In this document: positions 2,842-45,978 of the stretch, in pieces
Layout of the letters: every line of letters begins with the position of its first letter
How positions within the stretch are numbered: position 1 is the stretch's first letter
Assembly: GCA_964459725.1 (NCBI GenBank)
Contig: CAYWNT010000001.1
Location: 27,529-91,528, forward strand
Length of the DNA: 64,000 nucleotides
Source of the DNA: an uncultured Gammaproteobacteria bacterium
Lineage (GTDB): Bacteria > Patescibacteriota > Patescibacteriia > Patescibacteriales > UBA12075
Direction of reading: 5' to 3'
Program-made: the position numbers and the translations under genes
Notes under the pieces: model-generated
What the model was told of the DNA's origin: nothing
Seen by the model: only the letters and a program-made list of their open reading frames with translations
Database searches by the model: none

Positions 2842-3996
2842 TTAAATATTTTTTAATATTTTGGCGTGTTTATTTCTTATTTCGGAGACGACTTCTTTTT
2901 CTGCATTCTGAACATCAGTTTTTATGAGTGCCTTAGCGTAGTTTTTAGTTCCGGATGGACTGTATTTTTTGATCAGGTCTAGGGCATTGAAGTTTTTCAT
3001 AGCATGGACTAGAATTTTGGTGGCGACTTGTTCGTTTATTTTTGTCTCATAAATTATTACCACAATCTTTGATTGAGGTATATTTACGATCAATTCATCT
3101 ATTACGTCTGAGATATCATCCTCTTTTGTATTTGTTCGCGCAAAGTCATTTTCATTAAGAACCGACCAGACAATTTTATTGTCTGATGAGCTGGCTAGAC
3201 GAGCCAGAACTCGGCCCCAGAGTTTTAGGATGTTTAGGGATCTGGATCGATATAGCTTCTTTACAATTTGTTCTCGACGAGCGCCAAGTGAGATAAGGTC
3301 TGATGACACTGAAAGAACCTGGGGAGTGATACTTTTTGTTTTGTAATTTCTAGTTTTGGAAATGATCCCGGCCAGAAGACAGGTGGCCATATTTTCATCT
3401 ATCAATTCACGGGAGTAGCTTGTTAGAAGATTGAAAATAATTTCAGAGGTGGCAATCGATGTTATTTCCGTTTTATTGATCTGTCCGTATCCTTCGTTAT
3501 TTGAGTGGTGGTCGATATTGACTATTGGGACCTGGTAAAAAAACTCAGTATCTTTTTCAAAGATGCCACCAAGTGACTCCAGGTCAGACGTGTCTAGAGT
3601 TATGATGAGATCATAGCGAAATTCTCCAGAGCGTGACTTTATATCGTTTTGGGAAAAAAATCCGTCTTTTGGATAAATAACAAAATCAAGAGAATTAGCT
3701 TCGTTTCTGTATTTTACTTTGTTTATTTTTGCATTGGTGGTGTCTAGAGAGATAATGAATTTTCTAAGATTTTCAATTTCAGTGCCTATCATGCTAGCCC
3801 CAGGCAGAAAATCAAATACATTTTTCTGGTCTATCTTTTCAGCTATAATATCAAATTTCTTGTTTAGTTTTTTGAGCAAAATCCCCATAGCCAAAGCAGA
3901 CGCAACAGCATCGCCATTCCATTCTTTGTTAAAAGTAATTAATATATTTTGAGCCTTTTTTATTTGGTCAAAAATTTGTTGATCCTGATTTAACAT
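2842..3996 (-). CDS. DHH-family phosphoesterase (NrnA-like oligoribonuclease/pAp phosphatase family)
   Basis: 384 aa with N-terminal NGDAVAS (DHH motif I-like) and the VNIDHHSNN DHH motif. The overall layout is DHH plus a DHHA1-like C-terminal half. Confidence 0.75.
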   Translation of the reverse strand: MLNQDQQIFDQIKKAQNILITFNKEWNGDAVASALAMGILLKKLNKKFDIIAEKIDQKNVFDFLPGASMIGTEIENLRKFIISLDTTNAKINKVKYRNEANSLDFVIYPKDGFFSQNDIKSRSGEFRYDLIITLDTSDLESLGGIFEKDTEFFYQVPIVNIDHHSNNEGYGQINKTEITSIATSEIIFNLLTSYSRELIDENMATCLLAGIISKTRNYKTKSITPQVLSVSSDLISLGARREQIVKKLYRSRSLNILKLWGRVLARLASSSDNKIVWSVLNENDFARTNTKEDDISDVIDELIVNIPQSKIVVIIYETKINEQVATKILVHAMKNFNALDLIKKYSPSGTKNYAKALIKTDVQNAEKEVVSEIRNKHAKILKNI

Positions 3997-4024
3997 TTGG
4001 GGAAAATAATTTGTCTAATATATA

Positions 4025-4053
4025 AATATATATCATACAGTAAGTAGTGTCAA
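4025..4053 (-). promoter_or_regulatory. Sigma70-type promoter for the DHH gene
   Basis: On the minus strand: TTGACA (4053-4048), a 17-nt spacer, TATATT (4030-4025). Confidence 0.5.
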
Positions 4054-4178
4054 CAAGTGGACGCAAATTTTGTAAGATTATGATAAATTGAGATATATTT
4101 GTCAATTTTTCGTAAAATAAAAAGGAAGAAACATAAAATATTTGCTAATAGTATGTACATATTTATTGACAAATATTA

Positions 4179-4207
4179 TTGACGGATATTGAAAATTATC
4201 ATATATT
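4179..4207 (+). promoter_or_regulatory. Sigma70-type promoter for the 4259/4528 small-gene pair
   Basis: TTGACG 4179-4184, a 17-nt spacer, TATATT 4202-4207. It is embedded in a cluster of ATTGACAAAT boxes. Confidence 0.45.
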
Positions 4208-4258
4208 GACAAATTAGTAATAATATCTACAAGATTAGTTCAAAAGAGAGGATATATA

Positions 4259-4507
4259 ATGAAGAAAAAATATTTGGAATTAAGCAAGATGAGTATTGGA
4301 GTAATTATTGGACTAGGCTCTATCTATCCTTTTGATTCTTATTGGTATTTTGGTTTTATAATTGGAGTAGTTATTATGGGGTGGGGATGGCGAGAGTCTA
4401 TGAATCATCTAAAGACCGGAAGGCCGATACCAACTCACAAAATCGGAGGCTTGATTTTATTGATTGTTGTCATTGTTAATCTGATTAAGTTCTTTTTAAG
4501 CATTTAA
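4259..4507 (+). CDS. Small membrane protein (three predicted hydrophobic segments)
   Basis: 82 aa with hydrophobic stretches. An SD-like aaagagagga lies upstream. Confidence 0.5.
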   Translation: MKKKYLELSKMSIGVIIGLGSIYPFDSYWYFGFIIGVVIMGWGWRESMNHLKTGRPIPTHKIGGLILLIVVIVNLIKFFLSI

Positions 4508-11261: not shown

Positions 11262-11365
11262 ACTTTGATGTTCTTTTTATTAAAAATAAATAAGGAGGTA
11301 ATTAAAAAGAAAAAGAGAGTAAGCAAAAGCAAGAAACCACTAAAATTACTTAAGGAGAATTGTTA

Positions 11366-12112
11366 ATGAAAAAGCTCATCATTATTACGTCAGTTGTTTT
11401 ATCTATTTTCTTATTGTCGTATGCGGTAAGTGCTTCCACTCTTTTAACCGAGGATTGGGAAGGCGGCATTGACTTAAGTGTTTGGAGATCCTGGGGGAGC
11501 CCTACCTCAACCCTGGAAAGCGGACCAGATTCGCTCGGACTTAATTCATTTCGCCCCAATGGCGATTCGAACTACGAAAGTGGTGTTGTCAGCTTGAATT
11601 CTTTCGATGTCACACCAGGCCTTCAGGTTTCTTTTTCCTCAATGAGAAGAAGAATCACGACACATTATAACTTTAATGTTGTGTCACTAACCACCTCTGA
11701 TCCCACAACTTTTGGCAACTCTACTGCTTTCTATCATGGACGTATTGGTCCTTATATTATGCACTCAGGAGAAACTGCAAATGGTGTTGGCGCCAAGCTT
11801 GCTGATGGTAACCCTTGGCAGAATGGAGTTAATGTAATTTCAGAATCCAGCATTGGAGAATGGATAGACTATATGTTCCAATTTAATGCTGATGGATCTG
11901 TCGGATATTTCCAGAATGGAATTCTCGCCCACACAACTGAAGCTGATTTTATTGATTACGCTACCGCCCCCGATGTGCACCTGGTTGTTGCCGGACGAGG
12001 CAACGGATTGATGGAAAGTATTTCAGTTACTCAGGCTGTTCCAGAACCTGCCAGCATGCTTCTTATCGGTTCCGGTCTCGCCGGACTTCTTGGTTTACGT
12101 CGGAAGAAATAA
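11366..12112 (+). CDS. Secreted protein with a C-terminal PEP-CTERM sorting signal
   Basis: The start is moved to ATG 11366 (SD aaggaga). Signal peptide MKKLIIITSVVLSIFLLSYAVSAS. The C-terminus VPEPASMLLIGSGLAGLLGLRRKK is a PEP motif plus a TM helix plus a basic tail. Confidence 0.8.
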   Translation: MKKLIIITSVVLSIFLLSYAVSASTLLTEDWEGGIDLSVWRSWGSPTSTLESGPDSLGLNSFRPNGDSNYESGVVSLNSFDVTPGLQVSFSSMRRRITTHYNFNVVSLTTSDPTTFGNSTAFYHGRIGPYIMHSGETANGVGAKLADGNPWQNGVNVISESSIGEWIDYMFQFNADGSVGYFQNGILAHTTEADFIDYATAPDVHLVVAGRGNGLMESISVTQAVPEPASMLLIGSGLAGLLGLRRKK

Positions 12113-12357: not shown

Positions 12358-12439
12358 AATTAACAGAAATTTTCGAGGAAGATAAAAATTGTTAAAAAAG
12401 CACTTTTACATACAAAAACACCTTTTAAGGAGGCATCTT

Positions 12440-12709
12440 ATGAATAAGGGCATAAAACCCAAACAACTTTATTCGTTCTCAGATGTCTTTTATTACCCTC
12501 CTAGGGATATTAGTGGCATATGGGAAACGGTAAGATTAAACAGAATGAATAAGTGGGAATTAGTGCGGCGTCATAGTACTAATCCAGGAGAGCCGGTTGG
12601 AAAAAAGATTTTAGTTAAAAATGGTTTAATTCGAATGTTGGGTCGTAGAATCGGCAAAGAAGAAATGGAAAAAATAATGTTGAATGCAAAAAACGAAAAA
12701 GAGGTGTGA
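12440..12709 (+). CDS. Small hypothetical protein, paralog A (SGIWET / W-LVRR family)
   Basis: The start is moved to ATG 12440, behind SD aaggagg. It shares QL(Y/F)SF, SGIWET, W.LVRR.S and PVG motifs with 12935-13207. Confidence 0.6.
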   Translation: MNKGIKPKQLYSFSDVFYYPPRDISGIWETVRLNRMNKWELVRRHSTNPGEPVGKKILVKNGLIRMLGRRIGKEEMEKIMLNAKNEKEV

Positions 12710-12934: not shown

Positions 12935-13207
12935 ATGGGTGTAGATATTAAACTTAACCAGTTATTTTCTTTTCCAGACGGCAAAACTCATCCAGACAAA
13001 AATTTTAGTGGCATATGGGAAACAACAGAAGTGACAAGTTTGCATGACCCATCGAAAACCAGATGGAGGTTAGTGCGGCGTTTAAGTGTCGATACAGAAG
13101 CGCCTGTTGGGGAGTCATTGTCTCTTCCTCCAAAAGTGATTGAGTTATTTGCTTACCGAGTTGATCGAAAAGCATTGGTTGGTACACCATTGAGCAATAA
13201 AAAATAA
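12935..13207 (+). CDS. Small hypothetical protein, paralog B (SGIWET / W-LVRR family)
   Basis: 90 aa with SD-like aaagagg. Motif-level similarity to 12440-12709. Confidence 0.6.
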   Translation: MGVDIKLNQLFSFPDGKTHPDKNFSGIWETTEVTSLHDPSKTRWRLVRRLSVDTEAPVGESLSLPPKVIELFAYRVDRKALVGTPLSNKK

Positions 13208-13331: not shown

Positions 13332-13373
13332 CAAAATAAAAAGAAAAACTTCTTTTTGAAAAATAAGAATAAA

Positions 13374-13404
13374 GGGTTCTCGATAAATATCGAAGCCCTT
13401 TTTT
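13374..13404 (+). terminator. Rho-independent terminator (copy 2 of the cassette)
   Basis: Hairpin gggttctcgat/atcgaagccc followed by a T-run. Near-identical to 10089-10123. Confidence 0.65.
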
Positions 13405-13406
13405 AT

Positions 13407-13435
13407 TTGTATGAATTTTTTTCGCAATGTATAAT
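13407..13435 (+). promoter_or_regulatory. Extended -10 promoter (copy 2 of the cassette)
   Basis: TTGTAT 13407-13412, a 17-nt spacer ending in TG, TATAAT 13430-13435. The ATG at 13442 lies 6 nt after the -10. Confidence 0.6.
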
Positions 13436-13441
13436 AAAAAT

Positions 13442-14779
13442 ATGAAAAGTTTAGATAATAATATAGCACAATTGAATAATCAGGAGGATATAAAACGAGC
13501 AAGAAAAGAATCGCGTCAAAAAGAAGGCAAGGAAAGCTTGGTTGAGAGGGCAGCTTTAGCGATTAGTAATCTTGTTAGCGGGTCTAAGTCAGAAGATTGG
13601 CCGGTAATTTATGATACACCCTTCGTAAAGGATGCAAAAAGCAAAAAAGACAAGAAAAAGATTACCAGAAGAGGGTTTTTGAAAATGGCTGCTGCTGTTG
13701 GGGTTGTTGGTGCTGGGGCTACAGTGGCTACTAATCCTTTAGCTAGAGCTGCGATCAAGGAGGTTTTGGGAGATCGGGGAATTGAAGAAGAGGACATAGC
13801 AGAAGATGAGATGTTCCTTGATAGTGAATTTTTTGATGAAGATCTAGAGAAGGACTGGGAAAAAAGTAAAAACTTATTTTCAAAAGAAGAGATAGCCGAC
13901 ATTATTAAAGGAAAAATTTCATTATTCAAGCAAAAAAGAGAAATGTCTTCAGTGAAAGAGGTGTTTGATGTAAAGAAAGCGGGAAAAGTTAAGGTAGTTC
14001 CTGGGGCAAAAGAAAAGATTTTTAATTATTGGGAGGATAAATACAAAAATGACCCTGTAAAGAGCAGGGATTTTGAAAATGGATTTAAGAAAGGTCAAAA
14101 GTGGAGCAAGGGAGCAAAAACAGTTTTTGAGGTAGTGGGAGCGCCGGCTGATTTAAGTCACTTGGCAATTGCGGAGTCATATTGGGAGCTAAATGCATTT
14201 TCAGGGGTTGCTTATGGCCCCTATTAGTTTACGAGAAAAACCGCCGACATGTATAGACTTAAAAATAGGGCAAATCCTTATGAGAGTGCTAGAGCTTGCG
14301 CTGAATGCTTGAAAGATTTATATAAAGCAACAGGAGATTGGGATTTAGCATTGAGCGGATATAATGGTGGTTATATTTGGGGGTACTTGAAAGATGCCAA
14401 ACAGAAAAAACAAAAACTATCATTTGATAATTTTTTGGTTTATTTGGCTGATTATCTAAATAATTATCATGAAAAAGTGCAAAAAATGGATAGTGTAATG
14501 TATCGGGTGAAGAGAGGAGATAATCTAAGTGCTATTTCAAAAAATTACTCAATTGATATGGATAAGTTGGCAGAAATGAATAAAATAAAAGATTCGAGTG
14601 ATATTAAGATAGGTCAAAAAATAAAAATACCGCCAACGAAAGATATTAGAGAAAAAATGGTGAAAAAGAAGTTTGCTCAGATACATCAAAACGCTGAATA
14701 CGCTGCAAAAGTAACTGCCGCCATAAAAAGAGCACAAGAAATGGAATCGGAGAACTTGAAATTCGCTAGTCTAAAATAG
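13442..14779 (+). pseudogene. LysM-domain lytic transglycosylase (SLT/GH23) interrupted by one in-frame TAG (14225-14227)
   Basis: ORFs 13427-14227 and 14249-14779 are in the same frame. Across the stop the SLT motif reads AESYWELNAFSGVAYGPY*FTRKTADMY, with the stop where the conserved Gln of GLMQ belongs. Downstream come the YNGG motif and a LysM repeat (YRVKRGDNLSAISKNY...IKIGQKIKIP). A Tat-like TRRGFLK sits at residues 80-86 of the track ORF. Confidence 0.6.
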
Positions 14780-14787: not shown

Positions 14788-16158
14788 ATGAAGAAAATTA
14801 TATTTTTATTGGTATTACTATTTCCAATTATCGTTTCCGCCCAAACCATCCAAGAGAGAATGTCTGGAAGGATTTTGTTGCAGGTTGAGAAGAATGGTGA
14901 AGCTTGGTATGTGAGTCCGGGAAATAATTTTCGGTATTTCTTAGGTAGGCCAGCTGACGCTTTTAGAGTGATGAGAGAGTTGGGGGTGGGTATAAGTAAT
15001 GCTAATTTGGAAAAGATTCCAGTAGGGCTTGTAGATTTTGGCCAAAATATAGATAGCGACAGTGACGGATTACCTGACAAGATGGAAGAGGCCTTAGGAT
15101 TGAATGTAAATAACGCTGACACAGATGGCGATGGACATGGAGACGCGCAAGAGATAGAAAATGACTACAATCCTTTGAGTGGTGGTGAAAGTCTTGTTGA
15201 TTATAGCTTTACTAAAAGTAATTTAGGTAAAATATTTTTACAAGTCGAGAGGAATGGCGAGGCTTGGTATTTAGATCCAAAAACTGAGAAGAGGTACTTC
15301 CTGGGTCGTCCTAATGATGCCTTCAGAATAATGAGGCTCCTAGGGACTGGGATTACCAATAATGATTTAGCAACTATAAAGTCATTCTCACCGGATTTTT
15401 TAGTAGAAGATGTTGAGCTGGTAGTACATGATCTAATAAATAAGGAGCGAGAAAAAGAAGGGCTAGGCACATTGAAGTGGAATGACGATCTAGCTAATGT
15501 GGCCCGTGAGCATAGTGCAAATTTGGCAAGAGAGAATGAGGATTTCACAGGTTTGGGCAAGAGCTGTGACTATCCTATTATTCATCACGAGGGATTTAAT
15601 TTTGGAATATATAACAGGGAGAGACTGGAGAATAGAAATGTGCATTATTATGAAAAAATAGGAGAAAATATTGCTCTTATGTCAGTAGCCAATATTAATG
15701 TGAGATATATGTCGGGAGATGGGATTGAAAAAGCACTAGAGGACTGTGAGGAGGGTAGAGATGATAATCAAAATTTTAGTGATGCGCTAAAAAAGGAAGA
15801 AAATGAGGATAAAAAGCTTGAAATGATAAAGTCTGAGATAGACAAAAGGAAAGAAAGATTTGAAAATACCGTATTGTTTGAGGACTATAGCATAACCTGG
15901 AGCACAAAAAATGAAATTTCTATATCTACAGTAGAAGGCTGGATGAATAGCCCGGGGCATAGAAAAAATATCCTGACTGAAGATTTTGACGAAGCCGGAA
16001 TCGGTTCTGTTTATATAAACGGATACTTAATCTCTACCCAAGTATTTATAAAGAGAGCAGAATGCGGGTATAAGGATGGAGCTTGCTGCGAGAAGGAGGG
16101 CTACTACCCGTATTGCTTTACACCCCTGGAGTGCAATCAAAATAATATTTGTTATTAA
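14788..16158 (+). CDS. Secreted CAP/SCP (PR-1-like) domain protein with two N-terminal ~55-aa repeats and TSP3-like Asp-rich repeats
   Basis: It has a signal peptide. The repeats are GRILLQVEKNGEAWYVSP...YFLGRPADAFRVMRELGVGI and GKIFLQVERNGEAWYLDP...YFLGRPNDAFRIMRLLGTGI. There is also a DSDSDGLPD...DTDGDGHGD segment, and the C-terminal CAP motifs are GENIA...GWMNSPGHRKNIL. Confidence 0.8.
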   Translation: MKKIIFLLVLLFPIIVSAQTIQERMSGRILLQVEKNGEAWYVSPGNNFRYFLGRPADAFRVMRELGVGISNANLEKIPVGLVDFGQNIDSDSDGLPDKMEEALGLNVNNADTDGDGHGDAQEIENDYNPLSGGESLVDYSFTKSNLGKIFLQVERNGEAWYLDPKTEKRYFLGRPNDAFRIMRLLGTGITNNDLATIKSFSPDFLVEDVELVVHDLINKEREKEGLGTLKWNDDLANVAREHSANLARENEDFTGLGKSCDYPIIHHEGFNFGIYNRERLENRNVHYYEKIGENIALMSVANINVRYMSGDGIEKALEDCEEGRDDNQNFSDALKKEENEDKKLEMIKSEIDKRKERFENTVLFEDYSITWSTKNEISISTVEGWMNSPGHRKNILTEDFDEAGIGSVYINGYLISTQVFIKRAECGYKDGACCEKEGYYPYCFTPLECNQNNICY

Positions 16159-20918: not shown

Positions 20919-20935
20919 AATTCTAACATTTGAAA

Positions 20936-22033
20936 ATGGAAAATTTGTTAAAAAAAATAAAAAACCTTCATGACCAAGTGATAAAAACTTGGGAGCTTTT
21001 GGATATTGATCAAAAAAAGGAAAAAATTGAAGATCAAAAACTAAAAATGAACGCTTCTGATTTTTGGGATGACCATGAAGAAGCAGTGCGAGTCAGTAAG
21101 AATTTAGAATCTTATAAAAAAGAGGTGGGAGAATGGGAAAATATGAAAAAGGAAATTATAGATCTAGAGCAGTTAGTAGTTGAAGGAGAGAAAGAAAAGG
21201 ATGATTCCATAGAGGAAATGGTGATTGAGCAATATGAAAAACTAAAATCTAAATTTGAAAAATTGGAATTTTATATTTTGTTTGGAGGTAAGTACGATGA
21301 GGGCGGAGCTATCATTTCTATTCATGCCGGAACAGGTGGGGTAGATGCTCAGGATTGGGCTCAGATATTGGAACGGATGCTTCTTCGGTTTTGTGAAAAA
21401 AAGAATTGGAAGGTGGAGTTGGTGGAACGAACAATGGGAAATGAAGCAGGGATCAAAAGTTCCATGTATCACATTACAGGAAGATGGGCATATGGTTATC
21501 TGCAAAGTGAATCAGGGGTGCATAGACTAGTGCGCATTTCACCTTTTGATGCTGAAGCTATGAGGCATACCTCCTTTGCCTTGGTCGAGGTTATTCCGGA
21601 ACTTCCAGAGACAGAGGAAGTAGAAATCCAGGATAATGATTTACGAATTGATGTTTTCAAATCATCAGGGCCTGGTGGGCAAAGTGTAAATACAACAGAC
21701 TCAGCAATCAGAATTAAGCACGAACCTAGTGGCATTGTGGTCACTTGCCAAAATGAAAGATCTCAACACCAGAACAAAGAAGCAGCCATGAAAATACTTA
21801 AATCAAAATTATTTAAACTAGAAGTTGAAAAGAGAGAGGAAGAGGAACGAAAGATAAAAGGAGAGGCTCAAAAGGCTGAATGGGGAAAGCAGATTAGATC
21901 CTATGTTTTGCAGCCTTATAAAATGGTAAAAGATCATAGGACTAATTATGAAACACAAGAGACAGACAAGGTTTTGGATGGTGAGCTGGAAGAGTTTATG
22001 GAGGAATATTTGAGATGGTCTCATAACACATAG
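20936..22033 (+). CDS. prfB: Peptide chain release factor 2 (single uninterrupted ORF, no +1 frameshift site)
   Basis: SPF tripeptide (RISPFDA) and GGQ (SSGPGGQSVNTT). ATG 20936 is preferred over TTG 20930. Confidence 0.92.
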   Translation: MENLLKKIKNLHDQVIKTWELLDIDQKKEKIEDQKLKMNASDFWDDHEEAVRVSKNLESYKKEVGEWENMKKEIIDLEQLVVEGEKEKDDSIEEMVIEQYEKLKSKFEKLEFYILFGGKYDEGGAIISIHAGTGGVDAQDWAQILERMLLRFCEKKNWKVELVERTMGNEAGIKSSMYHITGRWAYGYLQSESGVHRLVRISPFDAEAMRHTSFALVEVIPELPETEEVEIQDNDLRIDVFKSSGPGGQSVNTTDSAIRIKHEPSGIVVTCQNERSQHQNKEAAMKILKSKLFKLEVEKREEEERKIKGEAQKAEWGKQIRSYVLQPYKMVKDHRTNYETQETDKVLDGELEEFMEEYLRWSHNT

Positions 22034-24827: not shown

Positions 24828-24931
24828 TAAGTATCTAATAAAATTCATTTTTATGTTTAATGTTAGTTAATTCTGATCATTGAAAACTAAATAATTTGCC
24901 TTATTTAATAAAAACAATAAAGGGGAGTGTC

Positions 24932-25870
24932 ATGGAAGATGGAAAAAGCTTAGTAGTGAGAGAAGAAACATCAGTCGCTTTTGTGGCTAATCAAACTAAG
25001 GCAGCAATTAACTCCGGTATTCGATCAGTTGCCAGGGCAGCCGTAAGTCAAGTTGAAGATTTGCCAGTTGGGCAAATACGACAGGTGCTTGATGCTGTGT
25101 GTGCAGGACATCCATTTGCGATGCGTACAATGGTTGAGACCTCTCTCACTTTCAATAGTGATGATGAGTATTCGGCAATTGTTGAGGCTATGGAGCCTGA
25201 TGAAATTCAGCATATAATGGAAATAAGTGAAAATATTTTTTCACAAGATAGTTTTCACGTTATTTCTCCACTTGATCACCACGATGATGCCTTATGGATT
25301 CCAATTACGGAAGAGGAGAAAGAGGCGATTGATAGATCTGAAGACGCTAATCTTCAGTCTAGAGTAAGAAGCATAAATCCTGTTTCTAGTTCTGTGAAAG
25401 TAGAAGGCCCATGGGCGATATTTCACAAAAAAACTGCCGTTGATAAAGAATCCATCATAAGTTATGTGTCAGCAGTAGTTAATGCCCGTCGCAGTAACGA
25501 TTGGAAAGAGGACATGCTTCGGGCAATAGGATTGGAAGTTTTGGCTTTTGTTTTTCATCATGATGATGAGATAAGAGCGAGAGTACAAAAAATTTCCCCT
25601 AAATTTGAAATTGAAGTTAAGGCTTTTTTGGAAAACAATCAACACGATCTTGAAGTGTTGATAGCACAAAGGCATGAAGATGCCCTTGATGATATGGGCA
25701 TGGCCGATACAGTCTTGCCAGAAGAAGAGCAATCGACAGAGTCTCTGTTGGGTGAACTTTCAGAATTAGAAGCACTTGCTGGCGGTGATGTTCAGGAGGC
25801 CGAAATTGCTTCAAGTGATATAGATGATGCGCTGAGCGCGGCATTTCAAAAAGGTATTCCTAATGAATGA
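24932..25870 (+). CDS. Hypothetical acidic protein P1 (no signal peptide), distant paralog of 25931-27799
   Basis: The start is moved to ATG 24932, behind SD aaaggggag. It shares the NIFS(Q/E)D ... LW....EE.EAI block with the next gene. It looks more G+C-rich than the flanks. Confidence 0.6.
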   Translation: MEDGKSLVVREETSVAFVANQTKAAINSGIRSVARAAVSQVEDLPVGQIRQVLDAVCAGHPFAMRTMVETSLTFNSDDEYSAIVEAMEPDEIQHIMEISENIFSQDSFHVISPLDHHDDALWIPITEEEKEAIDRSEDANLQSRVRSINPVSSSVKVEGPWAIFHKKTAVDKESIISYVSAVVNARRSNDWKEDMLRAIGLEVLAFVFHHDDEIRARVQKISPKFEIEVKAFLENNQHDLEVLIAQRHEDALDDMGMADTVLPEEEQSTESLLGELSELEALAGGDVQEAEIASSDIDDALSAAFQKGIPNE

Positions 25871-25877: not shown

Positions 25878-25907
25878 AGGCTCTACTTGTTTTTACAAGT
25901 AGAGCCT
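25878..25907 (+). promoter_or_regulatory. Intercistronic 13-bp perfect stem-loop without a T-tract
   Basis: Stem aggctctacttgt / acaagtagagcct with loop tttt, lying between the P1 stop and the P2 SD (gggggga). Confidence 0.5.
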
Positions 25908-25930
25908 TACTAAATTGGGGGGAGAAAATT

Positions 25931-27799
25931 ATGAGCAATGGTGACATAGTAGAAGTTTCTTCGATTGAAGCAGATGAGAGTTATTTGTTTGCTCAGGTGT
26001 ACTCAGCTCTTGATTTGTCTCCGGAAATAAGGGATTCACACAAAGAAGAGTTGAGATCTCTGGGCCTTAAACAAATAAAGGAGTTCGGCGGTAATCCGAT
26101 TAACCAAGCCGATCAAGCGAGAGGTGTAAGAAGGGCTTTGAAATTAATAAACCTTGGCCTTGAAAAAGCTGTAGAGAAAAAAGATCAAGAAATTGCTTTT
26201 TTTGATACAAATTTTGCTGGCATTATATTACGGAACAAGCCGTTGGAAATTTTGTACAAATTGGGAAAAAATATTTTTTCAGAAGACCGGGAAGTTGCCC
26301 TGAGTTTGTTAGAAAAGTCTGAGATAAAAGTCGATGAACTGTGGTATTGTTTAATAAATCCTGAAGAGCTGGAAGCAATAAGACAAATTACAGACTTGGA
26401 TGTATGTCGAGGCACTATTTCGGAGCACAAGTCGGCAACTAATTCTGTTCCAGGGGTATTCAGGAAAATGGAATTAGCAAAAAATTTACCTTTCTTTAAA
26501 GGTGATCTTATTTTCAGAAACTTTAAATCTTTTGGATCTCTGACAAAAGGGAATTATACCTCCGGAGAAGGTCTAGTTGATGTCTTCTTAGTTTCGTTAA
26601 TAATTGCGTGTTTGCATCGTGATGAAGAAGAGATGTTCCAGAGAAAAAGGGATTTAGAAGGTCGTGACATATTAAAAAAGAGTATAGATATTGCTCGTGC
26701 CATTGGTGATTATGAAAGCATCGAAAGACTTGTTGCTGATTCACAAGTGACAGAGAGATCAATGCAGTATGACAGAGAAGCTAGGTATCGCGATAAAAAA
26801 ATGCAGGAAAATTTTTTATCCGATCTGTCATTAGTTAAAATTGAAGAACTTGAAAGTTTTATCGAAATGATGTTTTGGGAAAAAGAAAAATTTTTAGTCA
26901 AAGCTCATAACATAAAAAGTCGCTATAATGATTTTTTCACAGTAACAGTTGATACTTTAAAGCTAAAAAATGAAGGAAAAATCTATAGTTCTACTCTTTT
27001 CTTGTTCCAAGAGTTAATTGTAAAAATATATGAAGATGTAAGAGCATTTTATCTTACAATTGATGATCCTGATTTAAAAAATGATGAAGTAGTAAAATTT
27101 TGGAACGGAAGAGTCTTGTTAAAACCTGCCCGTGATAACAGCATGATGGAGGGCATTGCAAAAGGTGCAGAGAATGGAGTCGGACCATCTGAGCTTGCAA
27201 AAATGCCGCTCGATTTTGTTTTAAAATCAGTGTCTCATTTTATTCACTGGAAGGAGAGCAGAAAAAGTGAGTTTGTCGCAAGCTTTAACCCCAATAGATT
27301 TATCTACGAGAAAGATGATCAGTGGAATTTTGTCGTCTTTTTCAGATTTTTAGATCCCTATGCTATTGGCTGGCCTGAACAAGCGACGCCAAATGTAGAC
27401 AGTGATCTAAGGATGGCCATTAAAAATTGCAGGTTTGGCGAGGAGCAAGATGACAAATCAGTGGTTGTTTATGAGCAGAGTGAAGATCACACCCATGAAT
27501 TGTTGAAAAAAATAGCTTGGGAACATGTTCATCCGATTTCTGTATCAATGTTGTGGGAATATGGCTCTGATAAAATCAGAAATTTCATCTCTAATCATTG
27601 TGACAGGATAAAGATCACAACGCATGCTTTGAAAAAGTATTACATTTTCGAGCATGAAGATTTGCGTTTACTTGATTTTGCTTTAACCGAATTAATTAAT
27701 CAAGACAAGCTCAAGAAAAAGGCTTGGGAAAATTTGATTTGGCTTTCAAAAGATATGCCGAGAGCCGGGAGACTGGTAATGGAAAAATCTCAAACATAA
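25931..27799 (+). CDS. Hypothetical protein P2 (622 aa, no signal peptide)
   Basis: Long ORF with SD. Its N-terminal third resembles P1. No catalytic motif was recognised. Confidence 0.6.
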   Translation: MSNGDIVEVSSIEADESYLFAQVYSALDLSPEIRDSHKEELRSLGLKQIKEFGGNPINQADQARGVRRALKLINLGLEKAVEKKDQEIAFFDTNFAGIILRNKPLEILYKLGKNIFSEDREVALSLLEKSEIKVDELWYCLINPEELEAIRQITDLDVCRGTISEHKSATNSVPGVFRKMELAKNLPFFKGDLIFRNFKSFGSLTKGNYTSGEGLVDVFLVSLIIACLHRDEEEMFQRKRDLEGRDILKKSIDIARAIGDYESIERLVADSQVTERSMQYDREARYRDKKMQENFLSDLSLVKIEELESFIEMMFWEKEKFLVKAHNIKSRYNDFFTVTVDTLKLKNEGKIYSSTLFLFQELIVKIYEDVRAFYLTIDDPDLKNDEVVKFWNGRVLLKPARDNSMMEGIAKGAENGVGPSELAKMPLDFVLKSVSHFIHWKESRKSEFVASFNPNRFIYEKDDQWNFVVFFRFLDPYAIGWPEQATPNVDSDLRMAIKNCRFGEEQDDKSVVVYEQSEDHTHELLKKIAWEHVHPISVSMLWEYGSDKIRNFISNHCDRIKITTHALKKYYIFEHEDLRLLDFALTELINQDKLKKKAWENLIWLSKDMPRAGRLVMEKSQT

Positions 27800-27855: not shown

Positions 27856-28009
27856 TGAAATTTTTATGAATTCTTTATTTGACAAATTGCCTTGAAATAT
27901 TTTCTTGCATATGATAAAAAACAAGGTCAATATTTTTATAAATTACTTCAGCGCTTTTGATTGCAGTATTGATGAATTATTTAGCGTTTTATCAAGGGGG
28001 ACAAAAAAT

Positions 28010-31000
28010 ATGTACAATATAAACTTTATCCCAAAACCTAAGAAAAAGGTTGATTTTTCTAAGGTATTGCCATTGATGGTTATTTTTTCAATGGTGATTT
28101 CTATGTTTCCGGCACCTATCTTTGCTGATTTAAATACAGGTATCGATTCTGGAAATAAAATTGATTTTTCTACTATTATTGGACTCGGAAAACATCAATA
28201 CAAAAATGGAAATTATTCCAAATTACAGGACGCTTATAGGTATATCTTTAATAATATCTATACAGATGGTTCTAAGCTACTTGCCTATCCTGAAAAATTT
28301 TCTGCTTCAGAGTCGGGAGCTAGTATTAATTATGATCAAGGAGCAGTATTTAATTTGGACGAAAATGATGACTTGAGTGATCCGAGACAGAAAAATAAAT
28401 TTGAATACTTTGTAAGTTCAACTACGGCAGAGCTAGGAAGAGCTAAGGCTTTATATGATGGCAACATTGCTATATTAGATCTTGAAAAGCACGTAAACGG
28501 AGAATTAAAAAATCTTACATTTGAATCCTCTTCTTATTGTCATATTTTGCATACTTATATTGGTAAGCACGAACAATGTTTCTCTGGCATGAGAGATTAT
28601 GAGGAGTATTTAGATGATGAAAAGTTTGCCGAAAAAGAAGAAACAAGTATTGTTTATTTTCATGTGGATGATGCTAAAAACGGAAAGTTAATGAATGGCA
28701 ATAATCCTCTCTTTAATATTTTGATCTTGCCTGATTTAATTTTTGGTCAAGAAGATAAAGTTCTTGAGAGCTTAGGAGTTGAGGGACAAAAAGCGATCAG
28801 AGATTTTGCAGCTGCAGGAGGAACTGTTTTCTCAACTGGAAAGTCATCTTATTTACTTGAAAAAATTGGACTTCTGGCAGATGGCACAGTTGATAAAGGC
28901 ACAGTAGTAAGAAGCAACTTCAACAAGATTAATTTGAATTGGAACGGGAAAGATGATTATGAAAGTAAATTGCTCAAGATGGGAAATTTTGAAAATGTTT
29001 TTGACGAAACTTTTCTTAATCCGGAAAACAAAGTGTTGAAAGTCATGGCTGACCACTATGTGCGCACTGGAGCGATAGAAGACAATGAGAATAAGTATAA
29101 TGAGACTATAGAAATACTACGAGGATTTAATCATAGATCTCAAATGTATTTCCTAACAAATTATTTTGTTAATTCAGAGAACGACGGAGAACTTAATGAG
29201 GTGGCAAGTTATAATTTAACAATAGGAAATAATTTAACATTTCAAAACGAAGATTCCTTAAGTTCTATAGAAAGGCCAGCCGACAAGATGACAGCCATAG
29301 CTTGGAAAAAATATGATAAAGGAAAAGTGGTGGTTATAAACGGAAATCCAGCATCTGGTCATGAAAAGTATTATCCTTATATTTTTAATTCAGTTTTCTT
29401 GTCTGGAGCAAAAAGCATAATTGCTGACTTAAAGGTGGCGCAAAAAACAAACCCTGACTTAGATGATGATATAATCCCAGCTTATGAAAAAGAGGTGGGA
29501 CTCCTAGGGAGCTTTAAAGTTAATAATTTTTTCAATAAACCAATTGAGAATATAAAGATTGGTGTAAATATTTATAAAGGATTTGAGATCGGTCAAAGTG
29601 ATAGCCTTTCTAATTGTGAAGTAAGAACTTTGGATGATAATGATTTGTATAACCAGAGACTAGAATGTGTTTATGACACCATAGAAGCTTTTGAAGAAGT
29701 ATATTTTGATTTTCCTGTTGTTATGACAGATCCGTATGTCACCAGAAAGAGAAAGGACATAGAAGCAGCAGATGGGGAGATGATTTATACAAGAGATGGA
29801 TTGTGGCAAGAAACAGTAAGTGGAGGAATTAGTTATTTACAAGCTAGAAATAGTTCAGAGATAAGAGGAGAGTATAATCCTGATCCGTCTTCGTTTTACC
29901 CCTTGAAAGGTGAAGGTGATTACATAGACAATGTTTTGTCAGCTCAAAATAGGGCACATACTGACGCTCTAGACGTTGAGCATATTGCAGTAGTTCCATT
30001 GATATCACCTGTGGTTGATGGGAATGATCAAGCTTCACTTGCTTATACTTTGGAGTTTTACAATGAATACTATCAGAACAAAAAAACAGAAAATTCTTAT
30101 GTGTTTCCATTTGAACAATATGGAGAAGTTAGGGATTATGATTATTTAGACTATAAGGAGCTTGGTTGTTCTGATGTAGTACTATCTCCTGACTGGGATA
30201 CACCAGTAAAAGTTGAGCTCATGAATAGAAGCGAAGCTGACTTACCAGTAAGCACAAGTTGTGAAGATGGAAGTCTGAGTAATATTGTTGGAAGAAATTA
30301 TGCGTACAGTATAAATAATAACAACCTAGCAACACTTCAAAGGTTTTTTCCAGATGCTGGAGACACTTACACCAATGCAACACAAAGACAATTGGTATTC
30401 CTAGACACTACCAAAGAGAAAGGAGCTAGAGATTACTATGAAGGATCTATTCCGGAAGAAATAAGAAACGGCAAGACGGCTAAGAAGAAATTGGTTTTTG
30501 CCAGAAATGACGTTTATTTTTATGATAATGACAATTATCCTCTACCATTAGGTGTTGAAGATAATGATATTTATATTTCAGTTGATAAAATGGATGAATG
30601 TGGTGACCCGGAGAAAGGAATTGTAAATCCTGGATATTTTGATCATGAAAAAGAGGGCGGTATAAAGCCAAATGAATATGAAAATGAACTGAGGTGTGAA
30701 CATGGAAAGAAGAAGATTCACGCTAATGTGGTAGAGGATTATACAAATGGAAAAGTTGAGCTATCTCATTATCTTTTCCCTATTACAGATAGTGATAACA
30801 TAAACGAAGTTCATGATTTGGCAGATTTTAATACTTCTTCCAATGAGCACAAAGACTATAGCGAGGTTGAATTTGTAAAAGCGCATACAAATATTTTTAC
30901 ATTGAATCCTAGAACAACACCACTCGGTGGTAAGTTCGTCTTTACTTTGCCTAGTGATGTTAACTTTAATTCAGATGATCCAGTGGGTGAAGGTCTTATT

Positions 31001-34000
31001 AATTTCTCTGCTGACCATGTGGCTTTTAGAGAGATTGAATATAATGCGGAAACAGGAGAGGTGATTGCGAAGTTTATTCGCGGCAAGATGCCAAATGAAA
31101 GATATGGCAAACCAGATATAATGCAGGTTAATTTTGAGGATCTGGATACTGATAGAGATTTTGACCTTAAGGTAGAGCTCAAGAGCTTGGAATATGATAT
31201 TGGCAATGGAGAAAATATGGAAATTTACAAAAATGCTGAGTTCACAGATAATATGCAAATGCAGAAAAAGCCCTTTCTTCGAATGCCTAGTCTTATATTG
31301 AAATTCAGATTAAATAGAGGGGAGAATGAAGATGAAAGTTATTTCAAAAGATACGAAAACATGGAGCCGTTTATTAGATACGGTGTTTATATCCAGGAGC
31401 TATTAAAACATAGAACAGTATATGGTTTTGCAGAAAATCATCCCGTGAGAGATCCTGGGTTGGTACTTAGAAGTGGAGGATTCTCAACATTTTCAAATAT
31501 TGGAGCATCTTCAATTCCGTTCAAAGAATACTTGCAAACAGGAATTAGACAGAGTGTGCCAGCTTCAGCGGTTACTTCTCGTATTGATTATAAAGATATA
31601 TGGAATAGACAATGGACCATGCCAGCCAGAACCGTGCTTCCTGATGTTCCTCCAATTCCGCCACCACTTAGAAATTTTATGATCAATACTACTTTTGAAA
31701 TGAGAGACATGGAAACCGGAGAGCGACACTTAGAGTGGGCATCGGACAGAGAGGTGGAAGTGCTTCATAAATTAAAAACAGTAAATAATTACCCTAAGTA
31801 TTTTGATTGTACAGCCTGTGAGGGAAATGAACTTTTGGTAAGAGAGGACAAGGAAGTAAAGGTGAGAAAAAAATATTATGTGGATATTAGTGAAGAGAGT
31901 CTTTACCCAAATCCTAATAGCTATCCATTAGCCAGAAATATGCCTGATAATGATATGGATGGATTACCTAATTATATGGAGGCAAATATTGGTTCTGATG
32001 AAAATAGTGAAGACACAGATGGAGATGAATATTTGGATGGGGAAGAATTTGTAAATGGATACAATGTCACAGGTGAAGGGGAAGCTTCAACCAGCACTTC
32101 ATCAAGCGCAGGAGCAAGTACAACAATGGAAGAGATAGTAGAAGAAGAGGAAGAAGCTCAAGGATTAAATGGTGACAACGAAGAAGATCCTTCGACCACT
32201 TCGACAGGCTCCCTCCAGGAAGGCGGGCAGGCTCCTTCGGCAAGCTCTCCTTCGACAGGCTCCCTCCAAGACGGCGGGCAAGTAGGACAAGAGGTACAGG
32301 AGGGTGAATCTGGAAATTCTACTGAGGAAGAATCAAATAAAGAAGATTCAACTGAAGAACAGGAAGAGTCTTCTGATTCTGAATCTGAAACTCCTCAAAC
32401 ACAGGAAGTTGAAGTCGAAACAATTGAACAAGTAGAAAGTTCATCTGATGAGGCTAGCAATTTTGCAATTTCATCTGATGGGGTAGACCATCCTGAAAAT
32501 TTGTATTTGAAGTCAGGAAATACTGCCAATTATGGAATGTGTTATCAATCAAAAGGAGATTTAGTTGACGGAGACGTGCTAACTGATAGTGAGAGAAATA
32601 AAATATTAGATGTTGAATTATGTGAAAGTGATGACGAGTGTAGTGAATTGGCTGATATACCTAGCCTATCCAAAAGACCAAGAGGAGAGAGTGGCAACTG
32701 GAACCATTCAGAGGCGGTTGAGGATTATTATCCAGAGAATTATATAAATGAAAGCATGTGGAGTCTGACTCATTATGATTATGCAGACAATGCCTTTGAG
32801 AAAGGTTATGTTTATCATATGGACAATCTTCTTCCTAATTTAGACAATATTAACAATAGAAAAATTCTAAGACCACATAATATTATAGCTCAGCCAATGT
32901 ACAAGGGTCTTGGTTATGCCATGAATTATGACAGAAATTATACATCGAAATTTTATGATGTAGAAGGAAATAAAATTACAGGTTGGCAAAGTGATAACCT
33001 GCAAAACAAAGACGATACATTGCTTGGCGGTCAGCTAGAAGCAAATGAGATTTCAGTAGACAAGGATAATCAGATGAAAAATAGATTTGTAGAGATTACA
33101 AATTTGGAAAATGGTGGAGAAAAGGTAGACAGGGCACTGGGCAATATTTATGCTTGTTTATTTAATAGGTGGAGAGCGAAAGTAGATCCTAATGACACTA
33201 AGTTTGTTTATCCTGACAATGTTTATAAGAATAATGTTATTCCTATTATTCCAGAGCTAAACAAGAATGATGCAAAGTTGACTAGTTATAATTGCGGAAG
33301 TGAATATTATACTCCAGAAAACATTCATGAAATAGACAATATCAAAGAAACTTATTCTAAGGATTGGTTATATTTTGGAATGGGACTTAGAGGTGGAGCT
33401 AAGGAAACCATAAACATAGTTTCAAAGCTAGATCCAATCGAGGGAGTGGCCTATGAGGGAGCGACCAAGATAAATACTGGAGCTAGATTTACTTATTGGA
33501 ATCCGGCCAATGGACCTAATTCGTTTATAGTAACTGATAATGACGTGAATATTGTAGAAGCTAAGCGAAGCAATATCGTGGTGAAGAAAGAAATCATTCC
33601 TGTGGAGGTGCCAACGTTTAATGCTGATATTTATCATTTGATATCTGTGGAAGACGCTAAAGAACATTGGCGATGGTTTAGGGATTCGCCGTATACAAAG
33701 CATTTCGGCTTTGGTGATGCTTCTACCGGAGTAATAGTTGGAAATAACAAGAAGTTGAAAAATAATGGCAGTATAATTAATCCTGGCCAGGAAACCGTTG
33801 TGAAAATTGAATTACTTAATAATAGCGGGTATGATTGGAATTTAATCAAATCACAGAATGGAAAACCAGCGATTGAAGCCCTAGAATTACCAGCAGAAGC
33901 AATTAATGCTAATGATTATTTGTACAAACTTAAACACGCCATCAAAAAGCCGATCAAGTTTAATTTTATAGATCTTGATATTCCGGCTGAGATTAAGGAC

Positions 34001-37752: not shown

Positions 37753-39399
37753 ATGAACAAGGAGAAAAAACAAACAATAGTTAAAATAGTAAGATTTGGG
37801 TTTTTTTTGGTTTTTGCATTCGCCTCGTCCATGGGGGGGATTTTTTTAATTGTCTTGTCTATTACCAAAATTCACATTAGTCAAACCATGGATACTATTA
37901 TTTATTCGAATGCTTATATTGAAGATATAGAGGTTGGTGCCAGTAGAATCAAAGAGGTTGAACAATACTATAAAATCGGTCATTTGGTATCTTTTAACAC
38001 AGCATCATCTGCTACGTTGAGCAATGTAGAGAGGGAGGAGTTCTATTATGCTAAGGCAGAAAATATCTTTTCTGAAATAAAGGCTGAAATTTTATCAAAC
38101 CTAAGTAATATTAAAATAATACCTAAAATAGAAGACTCAATACTTGTTTCAACCGAAGAGGTGCAAGTAAAATTGACAGAGCTGGAACAGGCTAACTTAG
38201 AGTTGATTAACGAGTATCGAATTCATGGAAGCATGATCCAGGAAAAGATTGTGAACTTCGAAAGCAAACAAGAGGAGACAGTGAATGGCATAAAGGTTCT
38301 TAATAGAAAATTAAATGAGCAATACTTTGTAAAAGCCGGCAATATTAATAATTTTTTGGTGTTACTTTTGTATTTAAACGCTGTTATGGTGGTGATGATC
38401 ATTGGAATTGGCATGCTTTTTTCAAAATATTTCTCCGGAAGCGTAAAGGGAATGCTACTTAGTCCTATTGGAGAGATTAAAAATTCCTCAAAAGATATTA
38501 TTAATTTCTTGGTTAAAAATAAAGGAATATCAGCTAGAGCTTCTGAAGTTTCTCGGGATGTTGCCCAGGGAGCAATTAGACAATCTGAGAAATCAAAGGA
38601 AATTGCCTCTCTTATATCTGGTATAGCTCAATCTACAGAAAAAATGTCAAATTCAGCTGGAGGAGCAAGTGAATCCGCAGAGCATACTGCCAAAATTGCC
38701 AAAGAAGCAGAAATAAAGAGTAAGGATTCTCAAAAGAGCCTCGAAGATATTAAGAATATTGTATTGGGCACCTTGGAAATATCGCAAAGTATGTCAGATA
38801 AATCAGAAAAAATTAATAATATAGTAGAAGTAATAACAGGTATAGCCAAACAAACAAATTTACTAGCCCTAAACGCTTCTATTGAGGCTGCCAGTGCAGG
38901 TGAGGCTGGGAGAGGTTTTGCAGTTGTGGCTGAAGAGGTTAGAAAGTTGGCAGAAGAAGCAGATAAATCAGCTGGTGAAATAAGGTTGTTGGTTGATGAT
39001 CTAGCTACTGGTATTAGAGAGACAGTGGTTTCTGCCGAATCAGGAACAGATATTGTGACAAAGAGCACTAAGGAAATAAACAAAACCATAGAGGGGCTAA
39101 AAAGTGTTTCAGATTCAGTTTCAGGTGTGACAGGAAAAGTTGAGGAAGTGTCAGATATCGCTAAGGAACAAACCAAGGCCACAAGTGATATTTCTAAAAT
39201 TTTTGACTCAATTGCTGATGTGGCTAATCAAAATTCAGAAAATGCAAACAAGCTATTAGATATAGTGGGAGAATTGAATATTTCCAATAGTCAGATGTCA
39301 AAAGTGTCATCACAGGTAAAAGGCATGTCGGAAATATTAAAGGATTTGGTCTACAAGACTAAGAAAAAGTTTACCAAAGAACAGGGGGCTGGTAGTTAA
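37753..39399 (+). CDS. mcp: Methyl-accepting chemotaxis protein (two TM helices, ~170-aa extracytoplasmic sensor)
   Basis: Signalling hairpin tip [43 protein letters not shown]. Confidence 0.9.
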
Positions 39400-39432
39400 A
39401 AGAGTATATTTTTGGCATTTTTAGCAAAAAAA

Positions 39433-39441
39433 TGTTATAAT
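39433..39441 (+). promoter_or_regulatory. Extended -10 promoter element upstream of the second mcp
   Basis: TGtTATAAT 39433-39441, about 40 nt before the ATG at 39482. Confidence 0.5.
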
Positions 39442-39481
39442 TTTTTTACAAAGAATATTTATTATTTATTTTTATATTAAT

Positions 39482-41281: not shown

Positions 41282-41342
41282 GTAAAATAATTAATTAGTA
41301 AATTCATTCGTGTCTTTTTAAGGGTGAATTAAACAAGCACAT

Positions 41343-41924
41343 ATGTCCACACAAGATGAGCTAATAAAAAAAGTAGCAGATCAGGAGAGTAAAAAAAACG
41401 ATAAAGTTGAGGATTTTATTCAACTGGTTATTTTTGAGCTGGATAAGGAAGAGTATGCTGTGGAAATTACAGATTTGCAAGAGATTATAAATATTCCGGA
41501 AATTACACCTATTCCTAATGCTCCAAAATTTATAAACGGAATATTGAATTTACGCGGAAAAATAAGTGTTGTTGTTGATCTAGAAAAGAGATTTAACTTA
41601 GTAAGAGAGCATGAAAATCAAGATGATGGAAATGTAATAATCACCGAGGTGGATGATAATAGTTTTGGGGTTATGGTTGATAGGGTAAGCGAGATTATAT
41701 CAGTACCTAAGTCAAGTATTCAGTCAACTCCGGCATTGGTATCATCCAAGATTCATGCTGATTATTTAAAAGGGGTGGTGGTTATAGTCGATCAAGAAAA
41801 AAAGGAAAAAGAGGTGAAAAAGCAAGTTGGTTCAAGATTAATTATTCTTTTAGATTTACATAAAATGCTCCAAGAAAAAGAGCTTTTACAATTAGGAAAA
41901 TCAATAAAAGAAGTAGTTAAATAA
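41343..41924 (+). CDS. cheW: Chemotaxis coupling protein CheW
   Basis: 193 aa with FELDKEEYAVEITDLQEIINIPEITPIPNAPKFINGILNLRGK. Confidence 0.88.
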   Translation: MSTQDELIKKVADQESKKNDKVEDFIQLVIFELDKEEYAVEITDLQEIINIPEITPIPNAPKFINGILNLRGKISVVVDLEKRFNLVREHENQDDGNVIITEVDDNSFGVMVDRVSEIISVPKSSIQSTPALVSSKIHADYLKGVVVIVDQEKKEKEVKKQVGSRLIILLDLHKMLQEKELLQLGKSIKEVVK

Positions 41925-42000
41925 ATTTTATAAAATATAAATTGCTAAAATAAGTATGAGATATGTATTGCTTATTTTTGTTATTTATTAATTAAAAAAA

Positions 42001-42360: not shown

Positions 42361-42376
42361 TTTCAGGATTTTAAAC

Positions 42377-43417: not shown

Positions 43418-43522
43418 TATTAAAGCAGGGGTGATTTTTTCCTGACTAAAATATCAGGAATTGAATAATTCAAAGATTAATTAAAAAATATTTAATGTTT
43501 GAATCATTCAATTTTTATATAA

Positions 43523-45271: not shown

Positions 45272-45355
45272 ATAATATTTATCATTGCTGAATTGATTAA
45301 TCAGGTTTAATTACTCAAGTCTGTTTGACAATTTTTCAATGCAACAAAAGTAATT

Positions 45356-45967: not shown

Positions 45968-45978
45968 AATATATAATT

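Follow-up and report, generated by a model that had tools for sequence, protein, structure and literature searches.

What is encoded between positions 13427 and 14779 of this 64,000-nucleotide stretch of DNA (the window, which is positions 27,529 to 91,528 of contig CAYWNT010000001.1, from an uncultured bacterium)? Two open reading frames (ORFs) lie there, 13427/13442-14227 and 14228-14779, and together they resemble a lytic transglycosylase with a LysM domain. A TAG codon at 14225-14227 separates them, so the locus might encode two proteins, or a single broken enzyme, or an enzyme whose stop codon is read through. We find that the two ORFs are one gene that is cut by the TAG, and that an annotation should treat the pair as a single, disrupted gene for an MltD-like transglycosylase, not as two proteins. 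We propose, with a probability of roughly 70%, that this is a young nonsense pseudogene or loss-of-function allele, which would be a leaky hypomorph at most. The features of the gene that we describe are all on the forward strand, and residues are numbered from the ATG at 13427.

A first-pass annotation, made from the sequence alone, had noticed that the two ORFs share a frame and that the TAG is the only interruption, and this is what we see if we read the frame from 13415 to 14779: there is a single internal stop, and the same frame stays open for 183 codons beyond it. After the other stops in the window (for genes of at least 150 amino acids), the frame mostly closes after 0-42 codons. The exceptions are 57 (88 codons) and three same-frame pairs of neighbouring genes. 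Across the stop, the translation reads AESYWELNAFSGVAYGPY-stop-FTRKTADMY, as had been stated, and the native DNA context is GGCCCCTAT-TAG-TTTACGAGA.

Pfam's SLT model (PF01464) matches the joined translation at residues 243-331, covering positions 17-111 of the model's 117, with a score of 36.4 bits (the cutoff is 21.3). The N-terminal fragment by itself has no Pfam SLT match, and the match of the C-terminal fragment by itself is confined to the model's second half (positions 60-112). It is only when the two ORFs are joined that the model crosses the stop, which shows that they are parts of one gene. The alignment to MltD from Pseudomonas aeruginosa (PaMltD) also continues across the TAG. Downstream of the stop, the YNGG motif is intact (as SGYNGG), and so is the LysM domain (14501-14632, residues 359-402 of the joined protein; 55.8 bits, E = 4.4e-15). 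Thus, the identification of the gene as a LysM lytic transglycosylase with an intact downstream part holds up. The TAG is the sole lesion within the gene.

The stop column aligns with the Gln of motif II of the SLT domain (GPYQF), which is conserved in every relative that we aligned. Apart from the 5' fragment itself, the best match in a search of 5.8 billion proteins is 43% identical. The homologs, from uncultured bacteria, are complete proteins of 378-569 residues, except for P0007 (281 amino acids), which represents the 5' part of an ortholog with a frameshift. All 14 of the protein homologs in our alignment A1 have Gln at the stop column. We also scanned the species genomes of GTDB and found 31 loci; the informative names among them are Parcubacteria, Paceibacterota, Moraniibacteriota, Falkowbacteria, and Campbellbacteria. 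With three more loci (L006, L008, and L040) this makes 34 related loci, all of which have a Gln codon at this position (23 CAA and 11 CAG) and none of which has an in-frame stop within the match. Another locus, L042, has Gln as well and brings the total to 35. The first-pass annotation was therefore correct in placing the stop at a conserved Gln. It had also reasoned that a broken gene would be the wrong explanation if orthologs naturally ended at the same place, and none of the 35 loci or 14 homologs does so. In the nearest relatives that keep the gene order of valyl-tRNA synthetase (ValRS), MscS, and SLT (L020 and L040), the codon is CAG, so a single C-to-T transition explains the TAG.

What would the intact enzyme be? 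We predict, from its sequence, a Patescibacteria-type, MltD-like family-1 lytic transglycosylase with a signal or anchor of the twin-arginine translocation (Tat) type, a helical module, an SLT domain, and one LysM domain. The SLT score, the Glu-Ser of motif I, and the A/G-Y-N-x-G motif are as expected for family 1. Motif II should end in Gln (G-L-M/W-Q), but in the window's copy it reads G-P-Y-TAG. As a stand-in for the joined protein, we made an AlphaFold (AF2) model of the intact homolog P0002, and this proxy has the lysozyme-like, all-helical fold. The mean predicted local distance difference test (pLDDT) score of the model is 80, and residues 86-480 are confident (block-mean pLDDT of about 79-97), including Gln183, which is the equivalent of the stop position. 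Its closest fold matches in PDB are structures of PaMltD (8RHF, 8RHE, and 8RHI; E = 4e-11), and PaMltD (8RHE) is also, by sequence, the nearest solved relative that has an SLT domain.

The segment ES...AAGLWQF of PaMltD pairs with AESYWELNAFSGVAYGPY-stop-F in the window. In PaMltD, E144-S145 is the catalytic pair, motif II is G159-L-W-Q, and Q162 forms a hydrogen bond with N-acetylglucosamine at subsite +1, or NAG(+1) (PMC11327851). The missing Gln corresponds to Q162, so the TAG replaces a substrate-contacting active-site residue.

As in PaMltD and E. coli MltD, the SLT domain is followed by LysM, motif I is Glu-Ser, motif II ends in Gln, and there is a Y-N-x-G motif. However, the window's protein is only about 20% identical to MltD. 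Motif II is GLWQ in MltD and GPYQ in the window's family (with the Gln codon turned into a stop in the window's copy). Also, the window's protein has one LysM domain, while MltD has two to four, and its signal is of the Tat type, while MltD has a lipobox cysteine. There is no lipobox Cys after the hydrophobic region (h-region) in the window's translation, which has the TRRGFLK signal and then NPLARA/AIKE. The joined protein scores 42.1 bits against NCBIfam's equivalog model for MltD (NF008050), versus a cutoff of 508, and its intact homologs score 50-78 bits. We consider the protein to be MltD-like by its architecture and not an MltD equivalog.

The TAG is the consensus in the sampled population. 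The same 5' fragment, with the same end, is present in five assemblies (JGI 3300007510 and 3300007511; ENA ERZ23498660 and ERZ23498639; and Logan SRR8062321), which represent three pipelines and at least two samples (the JGI samples are SAMN10231913/14). The longest contig known to have this gene is 224 kb (NCBI/ENA), and the two from ENA measure 204.6 kb (ERZ23498660 scaffold_68) and 200.8 kb (ERZ23498639 scaffold_66). Over 20.8 kb, these contigs are either equal to the window or differ from it by one base (T>C at 13845), so there are two haplotypes, and the sampled copies are at least 99.995% identical to each other. This one single-nucleotide polymorphism (SNP) in 20.8 kb is non-synonymous (L139P) and lies inside the transglycosylase gene. 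Because both haplotypes, at least two samples, and all three pipelines have the TAG, an assembly error, which had been suggested as one possible cause, is unlikely.

Two orthologs in other genomes, which have kept MscS as a neighbour, also seem to be broken. In L040 (ENA ERZ23498510 scaffold_20786), whose ValRS and MscS are 55% and 53% identical to those of the window, the ortholog (2891-4287) switches frame in a run of eight A's, at about 3722-3735, between SLT and LysM. In L042 (NCBI JAPVLN010048814.1), whose MscS is 54% identical to the window's, the ortholog (721-2200) ends with DERLDP and a stop and resumes in another frame at RRCLKDLYK; a deletion of about 23 nucleotides (nt), near 1400-1420, has removed the invariant SAxACA block. 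The syntenic orthologs in L020, L010, L014, L016, L025, and L026 are intact. If both lesions are real, then inactivation of the gene seems to have happened on three independent occasions among some nine syntenic lineages, a hint that this clade can do without the enzyme or pays a cost for it. Lytic transglycosylases have been described as highly redundant (PMC5372988).

We propose the following scenario. Judging from its family membership, the ancestral gene would have encoded an exported, wall-bound lytic transglycosylase that cuts the bond between N-acetylmuramic acid and N-acetylglucosamine (MurNAc-GlcNAc) in peptidoglycan, with Glu250 as the acid/base, to give 1,6-anhydroMurNAc as expected for family 1. 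A C-to-T transition would then have changed the CAG of the invariant motif-II Gln to TAG. Under the standard code, translation would stop after Tyr266, and the product would be a stub with the signal and Glu250 but without the LysM domain and roughly two-thirds of the catalytic domain, and is presumably inactive. The 3' part, which lacks a signal peptide and recognisable start signals, would not usefully be made as a separate protein. The most that one could expect is a trace of the wild-type protein, if tRNA-Gln, as a near-cognate, occasionally decodes the UAG. Since the TAG is the consensus in the population and the rest of the gene is undecayed, the pseudogene should be young. In short, the data show that the ORFs are one gene, where its stop lies, that relatives lack this stop, that it is reproducible, and that TAG has its standard use in this genome; we infer that the activity was lost, that this was recent, and that the enzyme is dispensable.

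Of the explanations that the first-pass annotation had offered, a recent nonsense mutation is the best supported. As expected of a pseudogene, the gene is disrupted relative to intact orthologs, and the disruption is reproducible in independent assemblies. We also asked how diverged the window's protein is. The nearest match to the window's ValRS is 58% identical and is from a 'Candidatus Parcubacteria' metagenome-assembled genome. At equal ValRS distance, the window's protein scores 177-204 bits against intact relatives, while pairs of intact proteins score 254-259 bits. So the window's protein is only mildly more diverged than intact pairs are, which is not decisive for old decay.

Several points weigh against a dead gene. 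All of the family-invariant residues downstream of the stop (10 columns in A1 and 21 in alignment A2) are kept in the window's gene, which fits continued selection as well as it fits a young lesion. The sampled copies are near-identical and the nearest relative is at 43%, so selection on the downstream part is not measurable. In Salmonella, UAG is the stop that is most often read through in pseudogenes, and mostly as Gln (PMC9122581); readthrough as Gln would restore the wild-type residue at this TAG. One report finds in-frame stops with purifying selection (dN/dS below 1) to be widespread in bacteria (PMC7918605). The contigs with the lesions in L040 and L042 are short and come from single samples, so that these lesions may be errors of assembly. 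Finally, we inspected the 64-kb window and 10 kb of its right flank, and a suppressor tRNA, the release factor RF1, or paralogous transglycosylases could lie elsewhere in the genome.

If the gene is not dead, then it might be a leaky hypomorph, or 'pseudo-pseudogene': a near-cognate tRNA-Gln(CUG) would read UAG at a low rate and restore the original Gln, and a small dose of the wild-type protein might be enough, or even preferred, for an enzyme that is potentially autolytic. We consider this unlikely. The Salmonella pseudo-pseudogenes do offer a close parallel, as they include transition-type UAG nonsense mutations in otherwise intact genes, with Gln as the likely insertion: UAG accounts for 68.6% of the stops that are read through, and four of the six mapped UAG sites were decoded as Gln (PMC9122581). 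The frequency of in-frame stops with low dN/dS and the intact residues past the stop would also fit. However, the context of the stop is UAU-UAG-U, and U is the rarest base at the Salmonella readthrough sites both at -1 (0%) and at +4 (12.5%) (PMC9122581). The stops of the Salmonella pseudo-pseudogenes have C-rich flanks, and the window's gene is known from its sequence alone. A U at +4 is also reported to lower readthrough (PMC5289835). There is no stimulatory RNA structure around or downstream of the TAG (the fold has z = -0.21 versus shuffled sequences), and no Rfam element matches at the stop. Furthermore, among the 35 related loci and 14 homologs, none has a stop at the Gln position, and the frequent use of TAG as a stop codon in this genome suggests that RF1 works normally. 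A GC-rich hairpin just before the TAG (14203-14222; -10.2 kcal/mol) might be mistaken for a terminator, but it is a product of the GGN...GGN-CCN codons of the G-x-x-x-G-P motif; the corresponding values in relatives are -2 to -14 kcal/mol.

It is very unlikely that the TAG is a sequencing or assembly artefact, or a minority allele that became the consensus, in a population that really has CAG. A difference of one base would suffice. However, the two haplotypes show that the five assemblies come from at least two distinct samples, which can be told apart by the SNP at 13845, and they all have the identical TAG. Also, there is no full-length variant in the collection of 5.8 billion proteins, and elsewhere the window is clean, with one ORF that runs without interruption for 2736 codons.

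We give hardly any credence to programmed or conditional recoding, in which the TAG would be a switch that is decoded as Gln if a suppressor is present, so that the full-length lytic enzyme is made on demand. The cell might have a tRNA(CUA) of its own as the suppressor, or a phage that uses TAG as Gln (code 15) might deliver one, or near-cognate tRNA-Gln might read the UAG when RF1 is limiting. In favour of this, the TAG is exactly at a Gln position in an otherwise intact gene, and phages are known to recode TAG to Gln by means of suppressor tRNAs (PMC9523058; bioRxiv 10.1101/2021.08.26.457843). But code 15 (PMC9523058) is a genome-wide recoding with suppressor tRNAs, while here a single codon is concerned, in a cellular genome where TAG otherwise serves as a stop. 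As for the Gln position, 27 single-transition routes to a stop codon are still left in the gene, and three of these are CAG to TAG. As CAG-to-TAG is the default route to TAG, nothing special can be read into the Gln position.

Other tests of the genetic code gave no sign of recoding either. This Patescibacteria-like genome follows the standard code. TAG terminates 16 of 79 long ORFs, including those for ValRS, MscS, CofD, NrdR, NrdD, and the release factor RF2, and treating TAG as a sense codon does not merge any other pair of ORFs in the window, which rules out a genome-wide reassignment of TAG. The only tRNA in the 64-kb window is Ile-UAU, so there is no suppressor tRNA in it, and we found neither RF1 nor any tRNA genes in the 10-kb right flank. 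There is no second interrupted gene in the 64-kb window, with or without an in-frame TAG. The stop is not conserved in any ortholog, and the other broken orthologs carry indels, not stops. Hence programmed readthrough at this TAG is without support, and the same can be said of the regulated readthrough that the first-pass annotation had raised: none of the relatives has the stop, TAG is an ordinary stop codon here, U is at both -1 and +4, and there is no structure downstream. If it were true, a conditional switch would keep a dangerous wall-cutting enzyme at a trace dose or would be a suicide response to infection, and this would be far more interesting than a pseudogene, but we found no support for it.

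That the locus encodes two functional proteins, an anchored N-terminal one and a separately started C-terminal one (half of SLT and LysM) that act apart or reassemble, is hard to credit even though gene callers annotate two ORFs and there is an in-frame ATG (14249) 21 nt past the stop, because the break is inside one compact and confidently modelled catalytic domain, the C-terminal fragment has no signal peptide and would remain in the cytoplasm, away from the N-terminal fragment and the substrate, neither a Shine-Dalgarno sequence nor a TATAAT box precedes ATG 14249, and no relative is split at this position; without a signal peptide or start signals for the 3' part, a two-piece enzyme is implausible. 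A promoter-like match for the 3' ORF (14338-14365) is just the Y-N codons of YNGG, and no in-frame ATG follows it.

The significance of a young nonsense pseudogene at this locus is mainly for annotation; neither the recurrent loss nor the Tat motif opens a long-standing question. The Tat motif does make a prediction about the family, though. In the window's protein, the twin-arginine motif T80-R-R-G-F-L-K86 (13664-13684) is followed by MAAAVGVVGAGATVATNPL and then by A-R-A; that is, by a weakly hydrophobic, Ala/Gly/Val-rich h-region (M87-L105) and A106-R-A108 (together 13685-13750). The A106-R-A108 is a possible AxA site for signal peptidase, where the protein might be cleaved. NCBIfam's TIGR01409 matches with 21.7 bits (above its cutoff of 16.7), while Pfam's TAT_signal is below its cutoff (18.3 versus 22.7). 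The first-pass annotation had described this perfect Tat consensus and its unusual distance from the N-terminus, and both descriptions are accurate. The arginines are at residues 81-82 (76-77 if the protein starts at ATG 13442), the furthest from the N-terminus in the family, whereas a Tat motif is usually within about 35 residues of the N-terminus. In the relatives they are mostly at residues 18-40, with two cases at 61 and 72. This leaves the window's protein with an n-region of 75-80 residues, far beyond the usual length for Tat signals.

The RR is nearly invariant in A2, and most of the 34 relatives have RR-x-F-[LIM]-K followed by a Gly/Ala-rich segment, so the Tat motif seems to be a trait of the whole family and not a peculiarity of the window's gene. 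The E. coli amidases AmiA and AmiC are cell-wall hydrolases that are exported by Tat. Like them, the window's family would be peptidoglycan-cleaving enzymes with twin-arginine signals, but AmiA and AmiC are amidases and the window's family is a transglycosylase of glycan strands. From the conserved motif, one would expect these organisms, about whose envelopes little is known, to export a wall-remodelling enzyme by the Tat pathway. Both TatA and TatC are reported from Paceibacteria (PMC9166423). We saw no Tat family among the precomputed Pfam matches (3.4-24.2 kb of the window and the 10-kb right flank) or in Pfam scans of selected ORFs, which leave out, among others, the PilC-like ORF at 48644-49735, the pseudopilin at 50700-51737, the response regulator at 46505-46873, and the giant ORF at 27905-36115.

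The start codon is slightly ambiguous. JGI's annotation starts at ATG 13427 (266 amino acids), and those of ENA and NCBI start at ATG 13442 (261 amino acids). An intrinsic-terminator-like hairpin followed by a U-run (13371-13407; minimum free energy of -13.7 kcal/mol, z = -3.67 versus shuffled sequences, then UUUUUUAUUU) closes the upstream unit, so the transglycosylase gene needs its own promoter within the next 35 nt or so. There is a promoter-like site at 13407-13435, whose function we infer from its sequence: TTGTAT (13407-13412), a 17-nt spacer, and a perfect TATAAT (13430-13435). The TTGTAT matches the -35 consensus at just 3 of 6 positions, so our promoter scan did not list this site. 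ATG 13442 lies six nt after the TATAAT, as the first-pass annotation had stated; but it had called this the only plausible ATG, and ATG 13427 is also in frame, with an M-Y-N that it shares with P0007. Perfect TATAAT boxes 6-7 nt before the ATG are found at four genes (13442, 16426 on the reverse strand, 36390, and 37753), as compared to about 0.3 expected in 62 genes. Also, most genes in the window lack a Shine-Dalgarno sequence. This suggests that leaderless mRNAs are frequent in this genome. We favour ATG 13442 because the upstream terminator leaves room for only the TTGTAT-17-TATAAT arrangement and because the leaderless layout recurs.

From ATG 13442, the translated 5' part (13442-14224) has 261 codons (266 from ATG 13427). 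It comprises the long n-region, the Tat signal, an acidic linker, a conserved helical N-terminal module, and the first third of SLT. The putative catalytic pair of motif I, Glu250-Ser251 (GAG TCA; 14174-14179), is invariant in A1 and corresponds to E144-S145 of PaMltD. The TAG (14225-14227) takes the place of the Gln in G-P-Y-Q-F. The rest of SLT (14228-14419; model positions 60-112), which is beyond the reach of normal translation, includes S-G-Y-N-G-G, of which Y312 (14360-14362), N313, and G315 are invariant in A1. After LysM, there is a C-terminal tail (14633-14779) with the family motif N-x-x-Y-x-x-K-x-x-A, and the natural stop is another TAG (14777-14779).

The next gene (14788-16158) starts 9 nt past the transglycosylase gene and encodes a secreted CAP/SCP-domain protein. 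The order of SLT and then CAP is also found in L025 and L026 (40-41% identity), which suggests that these form a conserved two-gene unit. Just upstream of the transglycosylase gene are two small paralogous ORFs (12389-12709 and 12935-13207; 106 and 90 amino acids) with the pattern LxSFxD...SGIWET...W.LVRR.S...PVG and no Pfam match. Further upstream, 11360-12112 encodes a secreted protein with a PEP-CTERM sorting motif (32.4 bits), and no exosortase was seen in the window. The gene for RF2 (20930-22033), which has the SPF motif, is a single uninterrupted ORF without the +1 frameshift that is common in bacterial prfB, and its stop codon is TAG.

Another same-frame pair, 24896-25870 and 25931-27799, is separated by a TGA and might be taken for an interrupted gene, but we ruled this out because a 13-bp hairpin and a Shine-Dalgarno sequence (GGGGGGAG) intervene and gene 31 has no family match. 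The hairpin is a perfect 13-bp inverted repeat (25879-25908; AGGCTCTACTTGT tttt ACAAGTAGAGCCT) between these two ORFs of unknown function, and the second ORF has a weak resemblance to DUF6178.

The giant ORF (27905-36115) is the one with 2736 codons. Beyond the window's right end, from L041:13835 onward, there is a gene that is called at 8899 residues and has no Pfam match on record. The region 37753-54943 begins with a complete chemosensory cluster, with two methyl-accepting chemotaxis proteins, CheW, CheY, CheB, CheA, CheC, and CheD; one further ORF in the cluster looks like a response regulator by eye. Directly downstream of the cluster are type IV pilus genes, for a PilB-like ATPase, a protein that is PilC-like by eye, pseudopilins, and a PilM-like protein with SH3. 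At the other end of the window, 57-2564 encodes a large serine recombinase (with Resolvase, Recombinase, and Zn-ribbon domains) and has two small helix-turn-helix genes upstream. The 3' end of the recombinase gene overlaps the gene for tRNA-Ile (2472-2547), which is on the opposite (reverse) strand and has the uncommon anticodon UAU. This region is probably the edge of an integrated element.

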